Source: Nitrosopumilaceae archaeon
Lineage (GTDB): Archaea; Thermoproteota; Nitrososphaeria; Nitrososphaerales; Nitrosopumilaceae
Assembly: GCA_965207375.1 (NCBI GenBank)
Contig: OZ242274.1
Coordinates: 2,080,001-2,144,000, forward strand
Reading direction: 5' to 3'
Length of the DNA stretch: 64,000 bases
Shown piece after piece: positions 4,684-12,107 of the stretch (position 1 is its first letter; each line of letters opens with the position of its first letter). The notes beneath the pieces are model-generated. The model was not told the DNA's origin. It ran no database searches and saw nothing but the letters and a program-made list of their open reading frames with translations. The position numbers were made by a program, and so were the translations under genes.

Positions 4684-4817
4684 TGTTGGATCTGAGGGCT
4701 GAATTAACAATACCTCGTATGAAGGTGGCCAACAGACTAGCTCACAGTAAGCGGACAACAAAATACCACGTTTTTGATGAACGGTGAATGGGAGTATTCC
4801 GCAAGATCAGGTCCACA
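4684..4817 (+). ncRNA. Candidate IS110 bridge-RNA-like structured non-coding RNA
   Basis: Upstream of the IS110 gene; closing stem TGTTGGATCTGA (4684-4695) / TCAGGTCCACA (4807-4817) and nested stem AATACCTCG / TGGGAGTATT. Confidence 0.5.
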
Positions 4818-5861
4818 AATTTTGATCAAAAAGGAGGTGATGATATCATCAACATCGGTCTAGACGTTGACAAAAAACAATGTGTTGCAACCATAAAAAA
4901 TGATAAAAACAAAAAGAAATTAGAACAGATTACATTTTCAAACGACACAAAAGGCATTACAGGTTTTATCAAACACATAAAGGAAACATACAATGACACT
5001 GCAAGAGCAGTCTGTGAATCCACTGCAAACTATTGGATAAGATTACATGACAAGCTAGAAGAGGGAATAGATACAATACTTGCGCATCCTGCAAAGACGA
5101 AGATAATAACACAGGCCAAGCTAAAAGACGACAAGCTTGATTCTGAGATACTAACTGATTTATTAAAATCAGATATGATATACGAGTCTTTTGTACCTAA
5201 CAAGTACTATAGAGATCTAAGGAATCTAGTCAGAACCAGAAGCGGATGCAAACGAGACGGTGCACGACATAGAAACAAAATCCATGTAATACTTGCCAAA
5301 TATGACTATCCGTGCCCAACCAAGGGCGTGTTTACAAAAAAAGGAATGAAATGGTTAGAAAGTATACCAATATCAGAAATAGACCGCATGTCAATGGACA
5401 TACATCTAGAATGCATAAACACGGCCATTGCACAAGTACAAAGATTGGAACAAAAGATGGCACAAATAGCACAAGATGAGGATAGAGTAAAACTACTCAT
5501 GACGATACCAGGAATCAGATACATTACAGCATTTACAATAATTTCTGATCTTGTAGATATTACAAGATATTCTACTGCAGAAAAGTTTGCAGCAGGTGGT
5601 GGCGTAATACCATCACACCGTAACAGTGCATCCACATACAAAGGAGGAGGAATAACAAAGGAAGGATCAGTATGGATGAGAAATGCTATAGTTGAGGCAG
5701 CTACAATAACCATACAGTATGATCCCAGAATGCAAAGAATCTACGAGAGAGTAAAAAAGAGACGAGGTGCACAAAAGGCAAAGGTTGCAGTAGCACTACA
5801 CATGCTGGAGATAATTTGGTACATGCTGACTAAACGAAGAATACAGAACACAGAATTGTGA
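4788..5861 (+). CDS. IS110-family recombinase/transposase (true start probably near 4845-4848; possible frameshift near 5832 with alternative stop at 5913)
   Basis: DEDD domain (IGLDVDK, VCEST, KDDKLDS) plus C-terminal Tnp domain (LLMTIPGI, SAS...GGITKEG...RNA, KAKVAVA). Confidence 0.9.
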   Translation: MGVFRKIRSTNFDQKGGDDIINIGLDVDKKQCVATIKNDKNKKKLEQITFSNDTKGITGFIKHIKETYNDTARAVCESTANYWIRLHDKLEEGIDTILAHPAKTKIITQAKLKDDKLDSEILTDLLKSDMIYESFVPNKYYRDLRNLVRTRSGCKRDGARHRNKIHVILAKYDYPCPTKGVFTKKGMKWLESIPISEIDRMSMDIHLECINTAIAQVQRLEQKMAQIAQDEDRVKLLMTIPGIRYITAFTIISDLVDITRYSTAEKFAAGGGVIPSHRNSASTYKGGGITKEGSVWMRNAIVEAATITIQYDPRMQRIYERVKKRRGAQKAKVAVALHMLEIIWYMLTKRRIQNTEL

Positions 5862-6757: not shown

Positions 6758-7774
6758 TCAGCACAGTTTTGCAATTATCTCATTGGTAAATTCTACAGTG
6801 GTTTTATCACCGCCAATGTCTTTTGTTCTTGTACCACACTTTACTACATCATATACCGTTGTTTCCAACCTTTTTGCAATCTCAAAACATTTAGAGTCAT
6901 TATTTTTTGCTCCAAGCCAATCCAACATAAGTTTAGTTGAAAGAATAAATGAACAAGGATTAGCTATATTCTTTCCGGCAATGTCAAAGGCTGCCCCATG
7001 AACCGGTTCAAAAAGTGCAAAGCTGTCTCCGATGTTGGCAGCAGGAGCCATACCTAATCCTCCAACTACCTGAGAAGACTCGTCAGATAAAATGTCGCCA
7101 AATAAATTAGTTGTAACTATAACATCGAATTTTTCTGGTTGGCGGATTAAATTCATAGCACATGCATCTACATACATTTGCTCAAATTCAACATCAGGAT
7201 AATTTTCTGCAATATCAGCACATGATTTTGCAAACAAGCCATCAGATATTCTCATGACATTGGATTTGTGAACGCATGTGACCTTTTTGTGATTATTTCT
7301 TTGTACGGCAATTTCAAAGGCATACTTGGCAATGCGTTTTGATGCACGTTCAGAGATGATTCGCAATGCAACAGCAGAATCACCAAGAGAAAACTCTTTG
7401 CCGATGTAAAGATCTTCGGTATTTTCACGTACAATTACCATGTCAATATCATCACGTAATGCAGGCATCGATGGGTAAGATTTTGCAGGGCGTATGTTGG
7501 CGTAAAGATCAAGTGTGCGGCGCAATGCAACAATAACATCTGCTGCACTTTCTCCAACAGGGGCCTTTAAACACGCATCAGAGTTCCTGATTGCAGCAAC
7601 GGTCTCATCAGGTAACGCCTTTCCGATATTTTGCAGGGCCATATCACCTGCAGACAGTTTTGCAATATCAAACTTCAAATCAAGCTTGTCATGTATTGTT
7701 TCAAGAACACTAGATACTGCACATGACAATTCAGGTCCTATGCCGTCACCTGTAATAAGAGACACTCGGTACAT
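6758..7774 (-). CDS. leuB: 3-isopropylmalate dehydrogenase (isocitrate/isopropylmalate DH family)
   Basis: GDGIGPE, LYANIRP, RENTEDLY, VHKSN, NLFGDILSD, FEPVHGAA; follows leuA. Confidence 0.85.
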   Translation of the reverse strand: MYRVSLITGDGIGPELSCAVSSVLETIHDKLDLKFDIAKLSAGDMALQNIGKALPDETVAAIRNSDACLKAPVGESAADVIVALRRTLDLYANIRPAKSYPSMPALRDDIDMVIVRENTEDLYIGKEFSLGDSAVALRIISERASKRIAKYAFEIAVQRNNHKKVTCVHKSNVMRISDGLFAKSCADIAENYPDVEFEQMYVDACAMNLIRQPEKFDVIVTTNLFGDILSDESSQVVGGLGMAPAANIGDSFALFEPVHGAAFDIAGKNIANPCSFILSTKLMLDWLGAKNNDSKCFEIAKRLETTVYDVVKCGTRTKDIGGDKTTVEFTNEIIAKLC

Positions 7775-7833
7775 GTGACACAATAAAGATGGGCAATTTT
7801 AAATCAATTGGAGTAAATATCTAGTGTGGTAAC

Positions 7834-9324
7834 CTAACGTTTTTTGAGCATGATACGGTTAATTCCATCAATTACTGCCTCAACACTGGTAGTAACTATA
7901 TCCTCACCTACTGCCTTGGCAGATACCTTATTTCGGGCAGCATCTTCTACTTTTATGGTAACTTCACATAATGCACTAGAACCTCCTGAAATTGATGCTA
8001 GGCCGTAATCTTTTATTTTAACCTCAGATATCTGGCCTGTGATTTTTTGGATTGCATTGAGTGCAGCATCAACTGGCCCCACACCATGATCAGTTGCGGT
8101 AAAATCCTTGCCATCTATGTTGAGCTTGACAAATGCATACGGCATAGTTCCAATTCCTGTAGATACTGAAAATCCAACTAGCCGCACGAGTTTGATTCCC
8201 TTGTCTCCCAAAATTTCATTGGTAATTGAAAGAAGTTCCACATCAGTAACCTGTTTTCCCTTATCACCCAAGGTTTTTACTTTATCAAGAATCTGATTTG
8301 ACTGCTCCTTGGTAGGAATTATACCATACTCTTGTAACATTGCATTCATACCGTGTAGACCTGCATGCTTGCCTACCTGTAACCATCGTTTTCTGCCTAC
8401 TAGTTCAGGACTGATTGGCTCATATGTCAGCGGATTGCTAAGAACCCCGTGTGTGTGAATGCCTGATTCATGACCAAACGCATTGTCACCTACTATGGCC
8501 TTGTTTGGCTGTACAGATATTCCAACAAGTTTTGAAACAAAGCGTGATGTTTCGTATAATAATTTGGTATTGATACTAGTTTCCCATTTTTGTTCAAATT
8601 GCAGACATTGCAGTCCCATAACAAACTCCTCCAATGACGCATTTCCTGCCCTCTCCCCAATTCCATTAATTGTTACATGCGCACACGTAGCACCTGCTTG
8701 AATTCCAGAAACTGCATTGGCAACTGCCAATCCAAAGTCGTTATGGCAATGTACACTGACTGGAAGTTTGGTGGCCTCGACTGTATCTTTTGTGATTTTA
8801 GCAATATAGTCAGGCGTAGAATAGCCAACCGTATCTGGAATATCAACCCTGTCAGCACCTGCCTTTGCCACCTCGCCAAATACCTTTTTCAAAAACCCCC
8901 TGTCGGTTCTTGTTGCATCCTCTGCAGAAAACTCGACCTGCAAACCATGAGATTTTCCATACTCTACTGCCTGGACTGCCTTTGAGAGGCACTCATCACG
9001 GCTCATGTGCAGTTTGTGCTCTAGATGGATATCAGAGGTTGCAATAAAGGTGTGAATATAATCTAGTCCTGCATCAATTGCAGCATCAATGTCTTTTTTG
9101 TTGGCCCTTGCAAGACCGCAAATTTCTGTATCAAGTCCCTGAGCAGTAATCATTTTGACTGCATGTAATTCGCCCTCAGATATGACTGGAAAGCCTGCCT
9201 CGATGGCATCGACTCCTAACTCATCTAATTTTTTTGCAATGTCTAGTTTTTTCTCAGGAGACAAAGATACGCCCGGAGTTTGTTCTCCATCCCGCAGTGT
9301 TGTATCAAAGATGCGAACGTTCAT
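7834..9324 (-). CDS. leuA: 2-isopropylmalate synthase (LeuA/CimA family)
   Basis: DTTLRDGEQ, HCHNDFG, GIGERAGN, HESGIH; C-terminal regulatory domain with GPVDA. Confidence 0.85.
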   Translation of the reverse strand: MNVRIFDTTLRDGEQTPGVSLSPEKKLDIAKKLDELGVDAIEAGFPVISEGELHAVKMITAQGLDTEICGLARANKKDIDAAIDAGLDYIHTFIATSDIHLEHKLHMSRDECLSKAVQAVEYGKSHGLQVEFSAEDATRTDRGFLKKVFGEVAKAGADRVDIPDTVGYSTPDYIAKITKDTVEATKLPVSVHCHNDFGLAVANAVSGIQAGATCAHVTINGIGERAGNASLEEFVMGLQCLQFEQKWETSINTKLLYETSRFVSKLVGISVQPNKAIVGDNAFGHESGIHTHGVLSNPLTYEPISPELVGRKRWLQVGKHAGLHGMNAMLQEYGIIPTKEQSNQILDKVKTLGDKGKQVTDVELLSITNEILGDKGIKLVRLVGFSVSTGIGTMPYAFVKLNIDGKDFTATDHGVGPVDAALNAIQKITGQISEVKIKDYGLASISGGSSALCEVTIKVEDAARNKVSAKAVGEDIVTTSVEAVIDGINRIMLKKR

Positions 9325-9803
9325 GCCCCGCTCCTCTGTAAAGCAGCAACTCCAGTCCTAGAGGTATCTAAAATTCCAAACTGCTTTGCTAGTTCCTCAA
9401 ATGCCTGGATTTGTTCTGGAGTAGAAGTTAATTCAACCATTATAGAGTCTTTTCTTATATCATGAACCTTGGCACCGTAGGCGTTTGCAAGTTTGTTAAT
9501 TTCCATACTGTCTTGTGGGGAATTTACTTTGACTTTAAAGAGTACTAGTTCTCGATACACGGTTTTATGCTCATCTAAATGACGTACCTCTACGGTATCA
9601 ATCATCTTGTCAAGTTGTTTTACAATTTGTTGTATTTGTTTTTGATCACCCAAGGTGGTAATAGTCATTCTGGAAAACTCTGGATTCTGAGTCACACCCA
9701 CAGAGATGCTGTCAATGTTAAAATTTCTAGAACGAAACAGGTGAGTTACCTGAAATAAGATGCCTGGTTTGTTTTCAACTAGTAATGAAAGTATGGCCCA
9801 CAT
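9321..9803 (-). CDS. ilvH: Acetolactate synthase small (regulatory) subunit
   Basis: ACT domain: LVENKPG, FNIDSISV, SRMTI, SRTG. Confidence 0.95.
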   Translation of the reverse strand: MWAILSLLVENKPGILFQVTHLFRSRNFNIDSISVGVTQNPEFSRMTITTLGDQKQIQQIVKQLDKMIDTVEVRHLDEHKTVYRELVLFKVKVNSPQDSMEINKLANAYGAKVHDIRKDSIMVELTSTPEQIQAFEELAKQFGILDTSRTGVAALQRSGA

Positions 9804-9812
9804 ATCAAATCA

Positions 9813-11513
9813 CTAAGATGGCAATATCATTTCCTTTAATGAAGTTCCTGGTGCCACAAATGGCAATACGTCCTCTTCGGGGTCAATTGGAATATCAATT
9901 ACGGTTGCAACATCGCTTTTTATCGCTGTCTTAATTGCATTATCAAGCTCTTCCATTGATTGTGCGCGTATTCCTTGAGCACCATATGATTCTGCTAGTT
10001 TTACATAATCTGGACAATGTTTTTGATCCACACCGATCATTCGTCTGTCGTAAAAGGTACGTTGCCATTGTGCAACCATGCCCAATGTGTAATTGTTTAT
10101 GAGAAATACAATAACTGGAATGTCTTCAGTAATACAGGTTGCAAGAGAGTTTTCAGTCATGTTAAAGCTTCCATCGCCTGCAATGTCCACTACTGGAACG
10201 TCTGGTTTTGCCACTTTGGCGCCTATGGCTGCAGGAAATCCCCATCCCATTGTGCCCAAACCCGTGGAGCTAAAAAAAGTGCCAGGCGATATCACGTCAT
10301 AAAATAGCGATGCCCACATTTGATGCTGTCCTACTTCAGTAGTTACAATTGATTCTTTTGGTAGCAGTTGCCTTAGTTTTCTTAAAATTTTAGCTGCTCC
10401 AAGCTCGCCAGGATGTAATTTCAAGTTCTCACGCCAATACTCTTTTACCTCACGTACATGTCTTAACCAAATATTGTCATCACTTCTTTTTACTGCCTGT
10501 TGGGTCAACATCTTTACCATAACTCGCAATGAGGCGCGTACATCACCTATCACTGCTACTTGGGTTGTTTGATTTTTGCCAATTTCGGCAGGATCTACAT
10601 CCATGTGAATGATTTTCAAATTCCTTTCAAACTCTTCAAATGTTCCAACAGATCTATCTGAGAATCTAGTTCCAATTGCAAGTACGCAATCTGCTTCACT
10701 CATCAACTTGTTTGCCTCAGCATGTCCATGCATTCCAATTGGGCCCAGAGATAGAGGATGCGTTTCGGGAAATGCACCCTTGCCCTTAAAAGTTGTCACT
10801 ACAGGAATCATAAGCAGTTCTGCAACTGCTTGTAATTCTGCAAATGCAGAAGAGATAATAGTTCCACCACCGGCTAAAATTATTGGTTTTTCAGAACCAA
10901 GCAACATTTTGATCGCACGTTCGATTTTAACCATATCAGGATCAGTCCACGGATGATATCCGCGAATCTTAAACTCTTCAGGAAAATTCATTAGAGCCTC
11001 GTTTTGTTGAACGTCTTTTGGAATGTCAAGTAATACGGGTCCGGGTCTACCAGTTTCTGCAATGTAAAATCCTTTTTTAACAATTTCAGGAATGTCTGCG
11101 GCATCTCTTGGTTGAAATGCATATTTTACTACAGGATTTGCCATTCCAATTATGTCACTTTCCTGAAAGGCATCTTTGCCTATCATCTTTACAGGTACTT
11201 GACCAGTAACTGCGATCATTGGAGCAGAATCGGCCTGTGCAGTAGCTATTCCAGTAAGAATATTTGTAGCACCGGGACCAGAGGTTGCAAAACACACTCC
11301 TGGTTTTCTACTTACTCTGCCAAATCCGTCTGCCATGTGAGCTGCTGACTGCTCATGTCGAACCAAGATATGTCGAATGTTTGATTTGTATAGTTCATCA
11401 TACATTGGGAGATTAGCTCCACCAGGTAATCCAAATACCTCCTTGACGCCTTCCTTTTCCATAGATTTCATCAAAGCAGCAGCACCTGACATTGTTTCCA
11501 TATTATTGATCAA
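9813..11513 (-). CDS. ilvB: Acetolactate synthase large subunit
   Basis: FGLPGG, RHEQ, SGPGATN, GQHQMW, GDGSF ThDP-binding motif. Confidence 0.97.
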   Translation of the reverse strand: MINNMETMSGAAALMKSMEKEGVKEVFGLPGGANLPMYDELYKSNIRHILVRHEQSAAHMADGFGRVSRKPGVCFATSGPGATNILTGIATAQADSAPMIAVTGQVPVKMIGKDAFQESDIIGMANPVVKYAFQPRDAADIPEIVKKGFYIAETGRPGPVLLDIPKDVQQNEALMNFPEEFKIRGYHPWTDPDMVKIERAIKMLLGSEKPIILAGGGTIISSAFAELQAVAELLMIPVVTTFKGKGAFPETHPLSLGPIGMHGHAEANKLMSEADCVLAIGTRFSDRSVGTFEEFERNLKIIHMDVDPAEIGKNQTTQVAVIGDVRASLRVMVKMLTQQAVKRSDDNIWLRHVREVKEYWRENLKLHPGELGAAKILRKLRQLLPKESIVTTEVGQHQMWASLFYDVISPGTFFSSTGLGTMGWGFPAAIGAKVAKPDVPVVDIAGDGSFNMTENSLATCITEDIPVIVFLINNYTLGMVAQWQRTFYDRRMIGVDQKHCPDYVKLAESYGAQGIRAQSMEELDNAIKTAIKSDVATVIDIPIDPEEDVLPFVAPGTSLKEMILPS

Positions 11514-11560
11514 CTTTTATCCCCATAATTTTAATCTAGTAAACCCAACAATGTTGGATT

Positions 11561-11614
11561 TTAGTACAGAACCTCCAGTAGAAGAATTTGAAAAGAAGCT
11601 ACTGGACCGAACAT
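11561..11614 (-). promoter_or_regulatory. Upstream ORF / putative leader peptide MFGPVASFQILLLEVLY of the ilv-leu operon
   Basis: ATG..TAA, 17 codons of which 7 are Val/Ile/Leu; TATA-like TTATAAAC about 25 bp upstream; two hairpins. Confidence 0.6.
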
Positions 11615-11795
11615 GTTATACCAAACACAGGATTGTTTATAAGATTAATGGATTAGATAACAATCTGCTAACCTCAAATCTTGACTATGATTTTTGAGAG
11701 AACACCAAAAATCATACTTTAAAAAAACACAGTTATCACCAGTTTATAGATGCCAATTAAAACTCAAGTTTGAGACTCTGAAATTTCTATTTTGA

Positions 11796-12107
11796 TTAAA
11801 AATCTTTTGGAATGTGATTGTTTGCTTTTAACCATTCAACCTGTGGCAAGGTAAATCTCCACACGATATCCCCACGATCATCACTGTTAAAGTCCCAAGG
11901 AGCAATTACAACAATGTCATTGTCACGAATCCAAACACGCCTTTTTAATTTGCCTCGGATTCTACCACGCCTAGTAATTCCATCCATACACTTTATCATA
12001 ACATTTTCGCCGCCAAGCATTTTTAAAACTCGTCCAAACATTTCACCTTCTTCAGGCAGACGAATTTCTTTTAGTGCACTTTCATTTTTTACCTGACGCT
12101 TTCCCAT
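11796..12107 (-). CDS. eif1A: Translation initiation factor aIF-1A
   Basis: GRVLKMLG, RGRIRGKLKRRVWIR.DIV, RGDIVWR. Confidence 0.95.
   Translation of the reverse strand: MGKRQVKNESALKEIRLPEEGEMFGRVLKMLGGENVMIKCMDGITRRGRIRGKLKRRVWIRDNDIVVIAPWDFNSDDRGDIVWRFTLPQVEWLKANNHIPKDF

Follow-up and report, generated by a model that had tools for sequence, protein, structure and literature searches.

Whether archaea can gauge amino-acid supply through the ribosomes that translate a short leader gene is the question raised by the spacer upstream of ilvB, the gene for the large subunit of acetolactate synthase, in a Nitrosopumilaceae archaeon. The DNA analysed (the window) is a stretch of 64,000 nucleotides (nt) from contig OZ242274.1 of assembly GCA_965207375.1 (positions 2,080,001 to 2,144,000); the genome to which it belongs is designated G000, and the window lies on its archaeal chromosome, contig C1. 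An upstream open reading frame (uORF) of 17 codons, encoding MFGPVASFQILLLEVLY, was proposed in the initial annotation to be a leader peptide rich in branched-chain amino acids, accompanied by hairpins in the manner of an attenuator. As judged from the sequence comparisons presented here, the element is real and conserved across the class Nitrososphaeria. The uORF is very probably a cis-regulatory leader peptide, and the leader would work like a bacterial attenuator with a different geometry. That the uORF is a regulatory leader peptide for ilvB-ilvN-leuA-leuB, sensed by ribosomes, is considered probable, with due room for doubt. The elements of the leader, in the direction of transcription, are as follows.

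11635-11643, minus strand: TATA-like element CTTATAAAC of the leader transcript; the hexamer TTATAA begins 28 nt before the uORF ATG.
11561-11614, minus strand: leader uORF, 17 codons and a stop codon (ATG at 11614-11612, TAA at 11563-11561).
11599-11606, minus strand: 5' arm of hairpin A, TCCAGTAG, in codons 3-6; perfect 8-bp complement of 11574-11581.
11567-11587, minus strand: control block ATT CTT CTA CTG GAG GTT CTG (I L L L E V L), codons 10-16.
11574-11581, minus strand: 3' arm of hairpin A, CTACTGGA, covering CTA CTG GA (Leu codons 12-13 and the start of codon 14).
11541-11561, minus strand: hairpin B, AAATCCAAC-ATT-GTTGGGTTT, which begins in the uORF stop codon.
11508-11514, minus strand: Shine-Dalgarno-like GTTGATC, 6 nt before the ilvB ATG.

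The uORF was found as initially described, with valine, isoleucine or leucine (L/I/V) in 7 of its 17 codons, the run ATT CTT CTA CTG among them, and with an internal 8-bp stem over the Leu codons. A TATA-like box had been placed about 25 bp before the ATG; it was recovered as TTATAAAC at 11642-11635, its first base 28 nt and its end 20 nt away from the uORF ATG. The second hairpin, after the stop codon, is also present: AAATCCAAC (11561-11553) pairs with GTTGGGTTT (11549-11541) over 9 bp, including one G-U, and closes a loop of 3 nt. Its distance from ilvB had to be corrected, since the end of the hairpin lies 39 nt from the ilvB ATG at 11501 and not about 30 nt. The T's after hairpin B are TTT only, in agreement with the earlier remark that no long U-tract follows it. 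Where the window has the Shine-Dalgarno-like GTTGATC, its relatives have GGTGA or GATGA.

Taken by itself, the single locus in the window is no better than chance. For the window alone, the fold of the whole leader gave a z-score of -1.27, and an equally good fold was obtained in 20 of 200 shuffles; the z-scores of the uORF and of the post-stop stretch were -1.65 and -0.51 respectively. The upstream small open reading frames (sORFs) of G000 were scanned with ATG starts, lengths of 8-50 codons and an end at most 130 nt from a long ORF. Ten of the 2234 sORFs had L/I/V in at least 6 of the last 8 codons, the ilvB uORF being one of the ten. The genes behind five of the other nine code for a radical-SAM protein, a Nuo/Mrp antiporter subunit, a D-aminoacyl-tRNA deacylase, a DUF1186/HEAT protein and a product without a family, none of them for amino-acid biosynthesis. 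Because the window-only statistics do not beat chance, the significance of the uORF rests on comparison with relatives.

The regions upstream of ilvB were collected from 130 loci (numbered with L; families with f): 30 from relatives up to the level of order, 40 from the class, 40 from the rest of the phylum and 20 further ones from the family. A strict test (ATG starts, 170 nt upstream, at least 6 of the last 8 codons L/I/V) was applied to the first 30 loci and detected a uORF in 17 of them; 200 dinucleotide shuffles gave a mean of 0.27 loci and a maximum of 2, and the reverse complement gave 0/30. A wider test admitted ATG, GTG or TTG starts and at least 5 of the last 8 codons L/I/V, at 20-130 nt before ilvB. 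A conserved I/L/V-rich uORF in orthologous ilvB leaders, set beforehand as the test of the initial proposal, was found in this way in 46/70 plus 18/20, that is 64/90, loci of the class Nitrososphaeria, and in 6/40 loci outside it. Of these six, only two f43 loci have real-looking leaders, the other matches lying within upstream coding sequence. The leader is present in 17 of the 23 sampled families of the class. It was not found by the wider test in f2, f9, f15, f23, f24 (where the stretch contains N) and f25; in f23 it is missing from 6/6 loci, and a TATA box stands about 25 nt before ilvB itself.

The nucleotides of the tail differ completely between families, while the frame, the stop codon and the class of amino acid are kept, as in CTA CTG GAG GTT CTG, TTG CTA GTC GAC CTT ATG CTG and GTG CTC CTC ATT GTC GTG. 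Among close relatives (L137, L079 and L138), CTT, ATT and GTT interchange at one position of the tail, and the start codon is ATG in L071 and TTG in L072 and L073. Together, these features argue for selection on the coding content and not only on an RNA motif. Peptides nearly identical to that of the window occur in other genera (MITPVAASSILLLEVLY in L127, MNPVTGFEVFLLLDVLY in L078).

The anatomy of the family was derived from the 64 leaders. The L/I/V block is always C-terminal and occupies the last 8-9 codons: the frequency of L/I/V from position -1 to -9, counted from the C-terminus, was 0.73, 0.91, 0.91, 0.52, 0.95, 0.81, 0.84, 0.59 and 0.49, and beyond -9 it dropped to 0.22-0.37. Asp or Glu is frequent at position -4. 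Of the last ten residues, 41% were Leu, 21% Val and 8% Ile. The uORFs are 9-44 codons long as called, and their N-terminal sequence varies freely. Leu codons in the tails of 19 leaders were CTG in 35% and CTA in 21% of cases, compared with 7% and 12% in ilvB of the same loci, a bias that is confounded by the hairpins.

In 53/64 loci the uORF start is preceded, at 24-45 nt, by the first base of a TATA-like hexamer, with AATCTTTATTAATTAT-type boxes in relatives; the distance is 28-30 nt in the subtype of the window and mostly 33-38 nt elsewhere. The usual distance between TATA box and transcription start site (TSS) in archaea puts the latter at, or a few nt from, the uORF ATG. Judging from the TATA spacing, the uORF would be leaderless or carry a 5' untranslated region of a few nt.

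Compared with shuffles, the uORF folds of the family had a mean z-score of -1.41 (37/64 below -1 and 13/64 below -2), and in one GC-rich family the entire uORF is a single long hairpin with a z-score of about -6. In the minimum-energy fold, a mean of 55% of the bases of the last 8 codons form a 3' arm, the 5' arm lying in the N-terminal codons. The two arms of hairpin A change together, as seen by eye in TCCAGTAG/CTACTGGA of the window, CAACAGTAG/CTACTGTTG of L006 and AACTAGTAA/TTACTAGTT of L007. Post-stop windows (-12 to +48) had a mean z-score of -1.54, with 29/46 below -1 and 16/46 below -2. When the start of the most stable hairpin of the stop region was searched from -9 to +12, it coincided with the first base of the stop codon or preceded it in 44/64 loci; in L078 a different hairpin, ATTCCG..CGGGAT, occupies the position of hairpin B. 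In 18 leaders with conserved sequence, hairpins A and B were 83% paired, against 21-52% with slid partners. Another subtype is represented by 13 leaders, in which the post-stop segment can pair with the start-codon region or with the last codons. The helix between the start-codon region and the post-stop segment was 85.6% paired in these, and 6 of its 7 pairs change on both sides; slid partners gave 28-50% for the whole structure, and 1 of 500 shuffles had a covariation score as high as that of the whole tested structure. Searches against Rfam returned no match with E below 1 in the window at 11400-11900, and nothing for 15 Thermoproteota leaders.

Four properties are constant across the leaders: the mini-gene is the presumed first cistron, the end-product codons come last, hairpin A includes these codons in its stem, and hairpin B contains the stop codon or adjoins it. 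The ilvB ribosome-binding site follows 6-30 nt beyond hairpin B. With this geometry, no ribosome can decode the last codons without having opened hairpin A and without sitting over the 5' arm of hairpin B. Our working model, the simplest one whose response has the physiologically correct sign and one that we rate as rather plausible, is that hairpin B, together with A, is the OFF structure and that a stalled ribosome prevents B by occlusion. Transcription would start about 25 nt downstream of the leader TATA box, at or next to the uORF ATG, and a ribosome would translate the uORF during synthesis of the leader. The last 8-9 codons, nearly all of them for Leu, Val or Ile, would form the 3' arm of hairpin A, and the 5' arm of hairpin B would contain the stop codon or begin just past it. 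When charged Leu, Val or Ile tRNAs are scarce, the ribosome would dwell on the terminal codons and cover the start of hairpin B, so that the hairpin could not form and ilvB would be expressed. When they are plentiful, the ribosome would reach the stop codon and leave, hairpins A and B would fold, and ilvB would be shut down. The TSS, translation of the uORF, the stalling, and the direction and level of the response are as we infer them.

As to how the shut-down would be achieved, we prefer an early stop of transcription at hairpin B or beyond it, whether or not FttA/aCPSF1 takes part, though we hold it at rather less than an even chance. A block of the ilvB ribosome-binding site, 25-30 nt downstream, ranks next and appears doubtful. 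In favour of termination are the convincing hairpins with T-runs of some leaders (T5GT4 in L003 and L127, T5 in L014, T6 in L060); the T-run counts given below and the bare TTT of the window weigh against it. A translational output would suit the closeness of hairpin B to the Shine-Dalgarno site and the weak pairing of this site in the window with the conserved box described below, a pairing that does not covary. The caution of the initial annotation, that the output might be FttA-type termination or control of ilvB initiation, stands.

Several observations weigh against ribosome-mediated sensing by this leader, or against the confidence to be placed in it. Hairpin B is also covered when the ribosome stands at the stop codon, which would leave dwell time as the sole difference between fed and starved cells; in those families whose hairpin B begins 2-9 nt after the stop codon, it would be reached only by stalls on the last 1-3 codons. 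The leader was not found in 26/90 loci of the class, and the window's own genus has weak leaders or none: L002 scored 4/8 (its tail ends PLFLLVGFTL), L003 scored 3/8 (PLFLLADFTL), and L004, with 2/8, has no clear leader. The counts overstate the support, because the relatives are not independent. Covariation in the set of 18 leaders is thin, a double change being seen in 1 of 16 pairs. The leader of the window has no T-run beyond TTT, and runs of at least 4 T between uORF and ilvB were found in 31/64 loci, compared with 36/64 control stretches upstream of the promoter. At gene ends of G000, a hairpin with a T-run was present in 76 of 1595 3' flanks in the sense orientation, 104 in antisense and 50 after shuffling; it was rejected as a general terminator of this genome. 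Finally, a conserved alternative (antiterminator) pairing was not found by eye or in the free and ribosome-blocked folds of 10 leaders. One candidate in the window, a pairing between ACTAGA, downstream of hairpin B, and the 5' arm of hairpin A, is not kept in L127 and L078, the closest leaders, and was taken as chance.

The alternative that survives best, which we nevertheless regard as unlikely, is purely translational attenuation, in which the ilvB ribosome-binding site is masked in the free leader and a ribosome stalled on the L/I/V codons opens it by rearranging the RNA. Its layout resembles that of the mycobacterial sORF Ms5788A, a first-cistron sORF with 3' control codons, as given in the accessible part of the report (10.1101/834739). 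In most loci 6-30 nt lie between the end of hairpin B and ilvB, and in several (L058, L025, L060 and L062) the hairpin touches the Shine-Dalgarno sequence or extends into it; the lack of T-run enrichment is in keeping with an effect on translation. The L/I/V tract, on the other hand, pairs with the 5' part of the uORF and not with the Shine-Dalgarno sequence in the window and in most loci; CUCC:GGAG-type contacts between the two were seen only in some GC-rich leaders (L062). What could mask the ribosome-binding site in the window is a further conserved element.

11523-11535, minus strand: conserved box ATTAAAATTATGG, near-invariant in 32 family loci.

The box, with its flanks AACACATTAAAATTATGGnGA, stands 36-24 nt before ilvB and is nearly invariant in these 32 loci across genera. 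In the fold of the window, the Shine-Dalgarno-like TTGATC pairs with GATTAA of the box (hairpin D), a pairing that speaks for masking; it is A/U-rich and weak, and no covariation was seen by eye across 31 loci. A G-C swap in the window looked compensatory, and other rows of the alignment break the pair. The box also persists in 4 loci without a uORF (L004, L008, L023 and L124), which counts against purely translational attenuation. Other genera have no box, hairpin B being followed directly by GGTGA. The box may act as a second promoter, in which case the TSS would coincide with the ilvB ATG, as a protein site, or as one part of an RNA switch. Exact matches to ATTAAAATTATGG were limited to the ilvB leader on C1 and one more on the eukaryote-like contig C3; as the ilvB leader is the sole exact match on C1, the box was rejected as a regulon site.

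Classical attenuation of the bacterial type, in which the position of the stalled ribosome selects between an antiterminator and an intrinsic terminator with a U-run, is in our judgement improbable. It would account for a uORF rich in the end products and for the two hairpins, and textbook-looking terminators do follow the stop codon in L003 (TACACTG-TAGG-CAGTGTA and T5GT4), L060 (GCGGCC..GGCCGC and T6) and L014 (with T5). T5GT4 follows the hairpin directly in L003, of the window's own genus, and also in L127, which has the peptide type of the window. The 13 leaders of the second subtype offer alternative partners for the post-stop segment, a further point in favour of this scheme. Against it stand the position of the control codons, at the very end of the ORF and within the 3' arm of hairpin A instead of segment 1, and the results given above: the search for a conserved 2:3 pairing was negative, T-runs show no enrichment and amount to TTT in the window, and a hairpin with a T-run does not mark gene ends in G000. 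Archaeal RNA polymerase, moreover, is not known to need hairpins for termination, which also counts against this scheme.

The weakest alternative, a uORF translated without sensing, whether as a constitutive damper or coupler of ilvB translation or as a small hydrophobic peptide with an independent function, would fit the conserved ORF, start and stop and the hydrophobic tails that are common in small membrane peptides, and is very improbable, given that only the L/I/V tail is kept while length and N-terminus vary, that a hydrophobic block of 8-9 residues, often broken by Asp or Glu at -4, is too short for a membrane span, and that neither the codon match to the products of the operon nor the presence of the uORF only before ilvB, and not before ilvC, ilvD or leuCD, in G000 would be explained.

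The initial annotation had compared the layout with the ilvBL/ilvL/leuL attenuators of bacteria, and the comparison holds in part. With the enterobacterial leaders ivbL (of ilvBN), ilvL (of ilvGMEDA) and leuL (of leu), the archaeal leader shares the short ORF, the end-product codons, the hairpins that follow and a bias to a rarely used Leu codon, here CTG and CTA; the leu leader of E. coli uses the rare Leu codon CUA. It differs from them in that it belongs to the archaeal domain, with a different RNA polymerase, and in that its control codons close the ORF as its final 8-9 codons and make up the 3' arm of hairpin A; no antiterminator was found, T-runs are not enriched (31/64 loci against 36/64 controls), and no Rfam leader family was matched. 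The archaeal leader is not a member of the classical ilvL/leuL layout, because its control codons lie outside segment 1 and no conserved antiterminator was found.

For the occlusion step alone, an analogy is offered by the pyrBI attenuator of E. coli, where a ribosome that trails the polymerase closely keeps a hairpin across the end of the leader ORF from forming. That system senses UTP through pausing of the polymerase, and not the supply of an amino acid.

Among the systems compared, the mycobacterial polycysteine sORF is the closest described architecture, as far as the accessible part of the report goes (10.1101/834739). The leaderless Ms5788A acts on translation, its Cys tract pairing with the Shine-Dalgarno sequence of the next gene. 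Shared with it are the position of the sORF as first cistron (here deduced from the TATA spacing), the control codons at its 3' end, and a highly structured leader without a classical pair of terminator and antiterminator. In the archaeal leader, unlike Ms5788A as described there, the partner of the L/I/V tract is the 5' half of the uORF that contains it, and the stop codon carries a hairpin of its own. The ilvBNC leader of Corynebacterium, according to the accessible parts of two reports (PMC10272879, PMC11857589), likewise has a conserved uORF in the ilvB mRNA leader and several hairpins, and regulates ilv; it is bacterial, and the likeness is drawn at the level of outline.

Leader-peptide attenuation is a textbook case of bacterial coupling between transcription and translation. 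Full-text literature searches turned up no account of attenuation by a leader peptide, or mediated by ribosomes, for any archaeon; tables of TSSs or small ORFs that include the uORF may nevertheless exist. In their accessible parts, a paper on valine in Methanothermobacter cites attenuation for bacteria only, and ribosome-profiling (Ribo-seq) papers on Haloferax and Methanosarcina mention uORFs in general terms only. That ribosome-mediated leader-peptide sensing is an old and widespread archaeal mode of control, and not a bacterial speciality, is an idea we advance tentatively, as one not far short of an even chance. With similar reserve, it may have a geometry of its own, with terminal control codons in a leaderless mini-gene, a stop codon inside a hairpin and no antiterminator. 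As the RNA polymerase is eukaryote-like, the stop signal would be a hairpin-dependent or FttA-dependent mode of termination not yet described. If the proposal is true, the leader offers a conserved and experimentally approachable locus for the study of an archaeal polymerase that is stopped or released by a trailing ribosome, and a direct gauge of amino-acid supply for ammonia-oxidising archaea, which have few known regulators. Genes of 50 nt of the leader-peptide kind would then be systematically missing from archaeal annotations.

Outside the class, several Thermoproteota families carry a different conserved mini-uORF of 8-11 codons before ilvB, M-x-G-G-x-T-L-Q-V, for example MMGGYTLQVE, MIGGYTLQV, MSGGTLQVR and MRDGTLQV. 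It was seen in L103-L106, L119 (f42), L112 (f50), L117 (f57) and L118 (f58), with related forms in L094, L095, L099, L100 and L108, and it sits on a small hairpin, GGGU..ACCCUCCAAG. A regular expression for the motif matched 7/40 out-of-class loci, and no Rfam family matched the mini-uORF.

Elsewhere in G000, no L/I/V-tailed sORF was found upstream of ilvC, ilvD or leuCD, the best score being 4/8. The crude sORF scan of the genome gave nothing convincing for leader peptides of His, Trp, Phe and other amino acids; leaders can be missed by it because it is limited to ATG starts, 8-50 codons and an end at most 130 nt from a long ORF. His-rich and Phe-rich sORFs were rejected as leaders, the genes behind them being those for an ABC-3 transporter, a peptidase M1, a 3-hydroxyacyl-CoA dehydrogenase and CdvA. 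A second sORF of the ilvB spacer, MIFGVLSKIIVKI, at 214-172 nt before ilvB, is not conserved in relatives and was taken as chance. An ORF of 37 codons, MRACPICPQCGSKRFERLPKKGMIVKCRKCNQIIDIS, was noted on C1 at about 1154510-1154624, ending 29 nt before ilvC; with two CxxC pairs it is zinc-ribbon-like and is probably a small unannotated protein gene.

The genes around the leader and the remaining features of the spacer are as follows.

11796-12107, minus strand: eIF-1A gene (translation factor 1A; Pfam eIF-1a), which precedes the ilvB spacer.
11502-11795, minus strand: spacer of 294 nt between eIF-1A and ilvB.
11721-11727, minus strand: run of seven T in the spacer, after the eIF-1A hairpin.
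9813-11501, minus strand: ilvB, acetolactate synthase large subunit, the first structural gene (Pfam TPP_enzyme_N/M/C).
9321-9803, minus strand: ilvN (Pfam ALS_ss_C/ACT).
7834-9324, minus strand: leuA (Pfam HMGL-like and LeuA_dimer).
6758-7783, minus strand: leuB (Pfam Iso_dh).

From their spacing and strand, ilvB, ilvN, leuA and leuB appear to form one operon. The start of ilvB was set at the ATG at 11501, and not at the TTG at 11513 given in the ORF listing, because an M-E-T-M start is conserved in relatives. In L009 and L022, ATA stands where the relatives have the conserved ilvB ATG; this could reflect a downstream start, a start at an Ile codon or a sequencing difference. Downstream of the eIF-1A stop codon, a small hairpin, CTCAA-ac-TTGAG, is followed by TTTTAA (11758-11776, minus strand). 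The hairpin with TTTTAA and the run of seven T are probably the end of the upstream transcript, in which case the ilvB leader would have its own promoter. At the far end of the gene row, about 0.9 kb beyond leuB, a gene for an IS110-family transposase (Pfam DEDD_Tnp_IS110 and Transposase_20) lies at 4788-5861 of the window on the plus strand.

The other contigs of G000, C2, C3 and C4 (2.14 Mb together), have a long-ORF coverage of 10-17%, compared with 74% on C1, and 83-252 dinucleotide microsatellites per Mb, compared with 0 on C1. They look like eukaryotic, possibly host, DNA that was binned with the archaeal chromosome, and the genome size of 4.3 Mb is therefore probably inflated.

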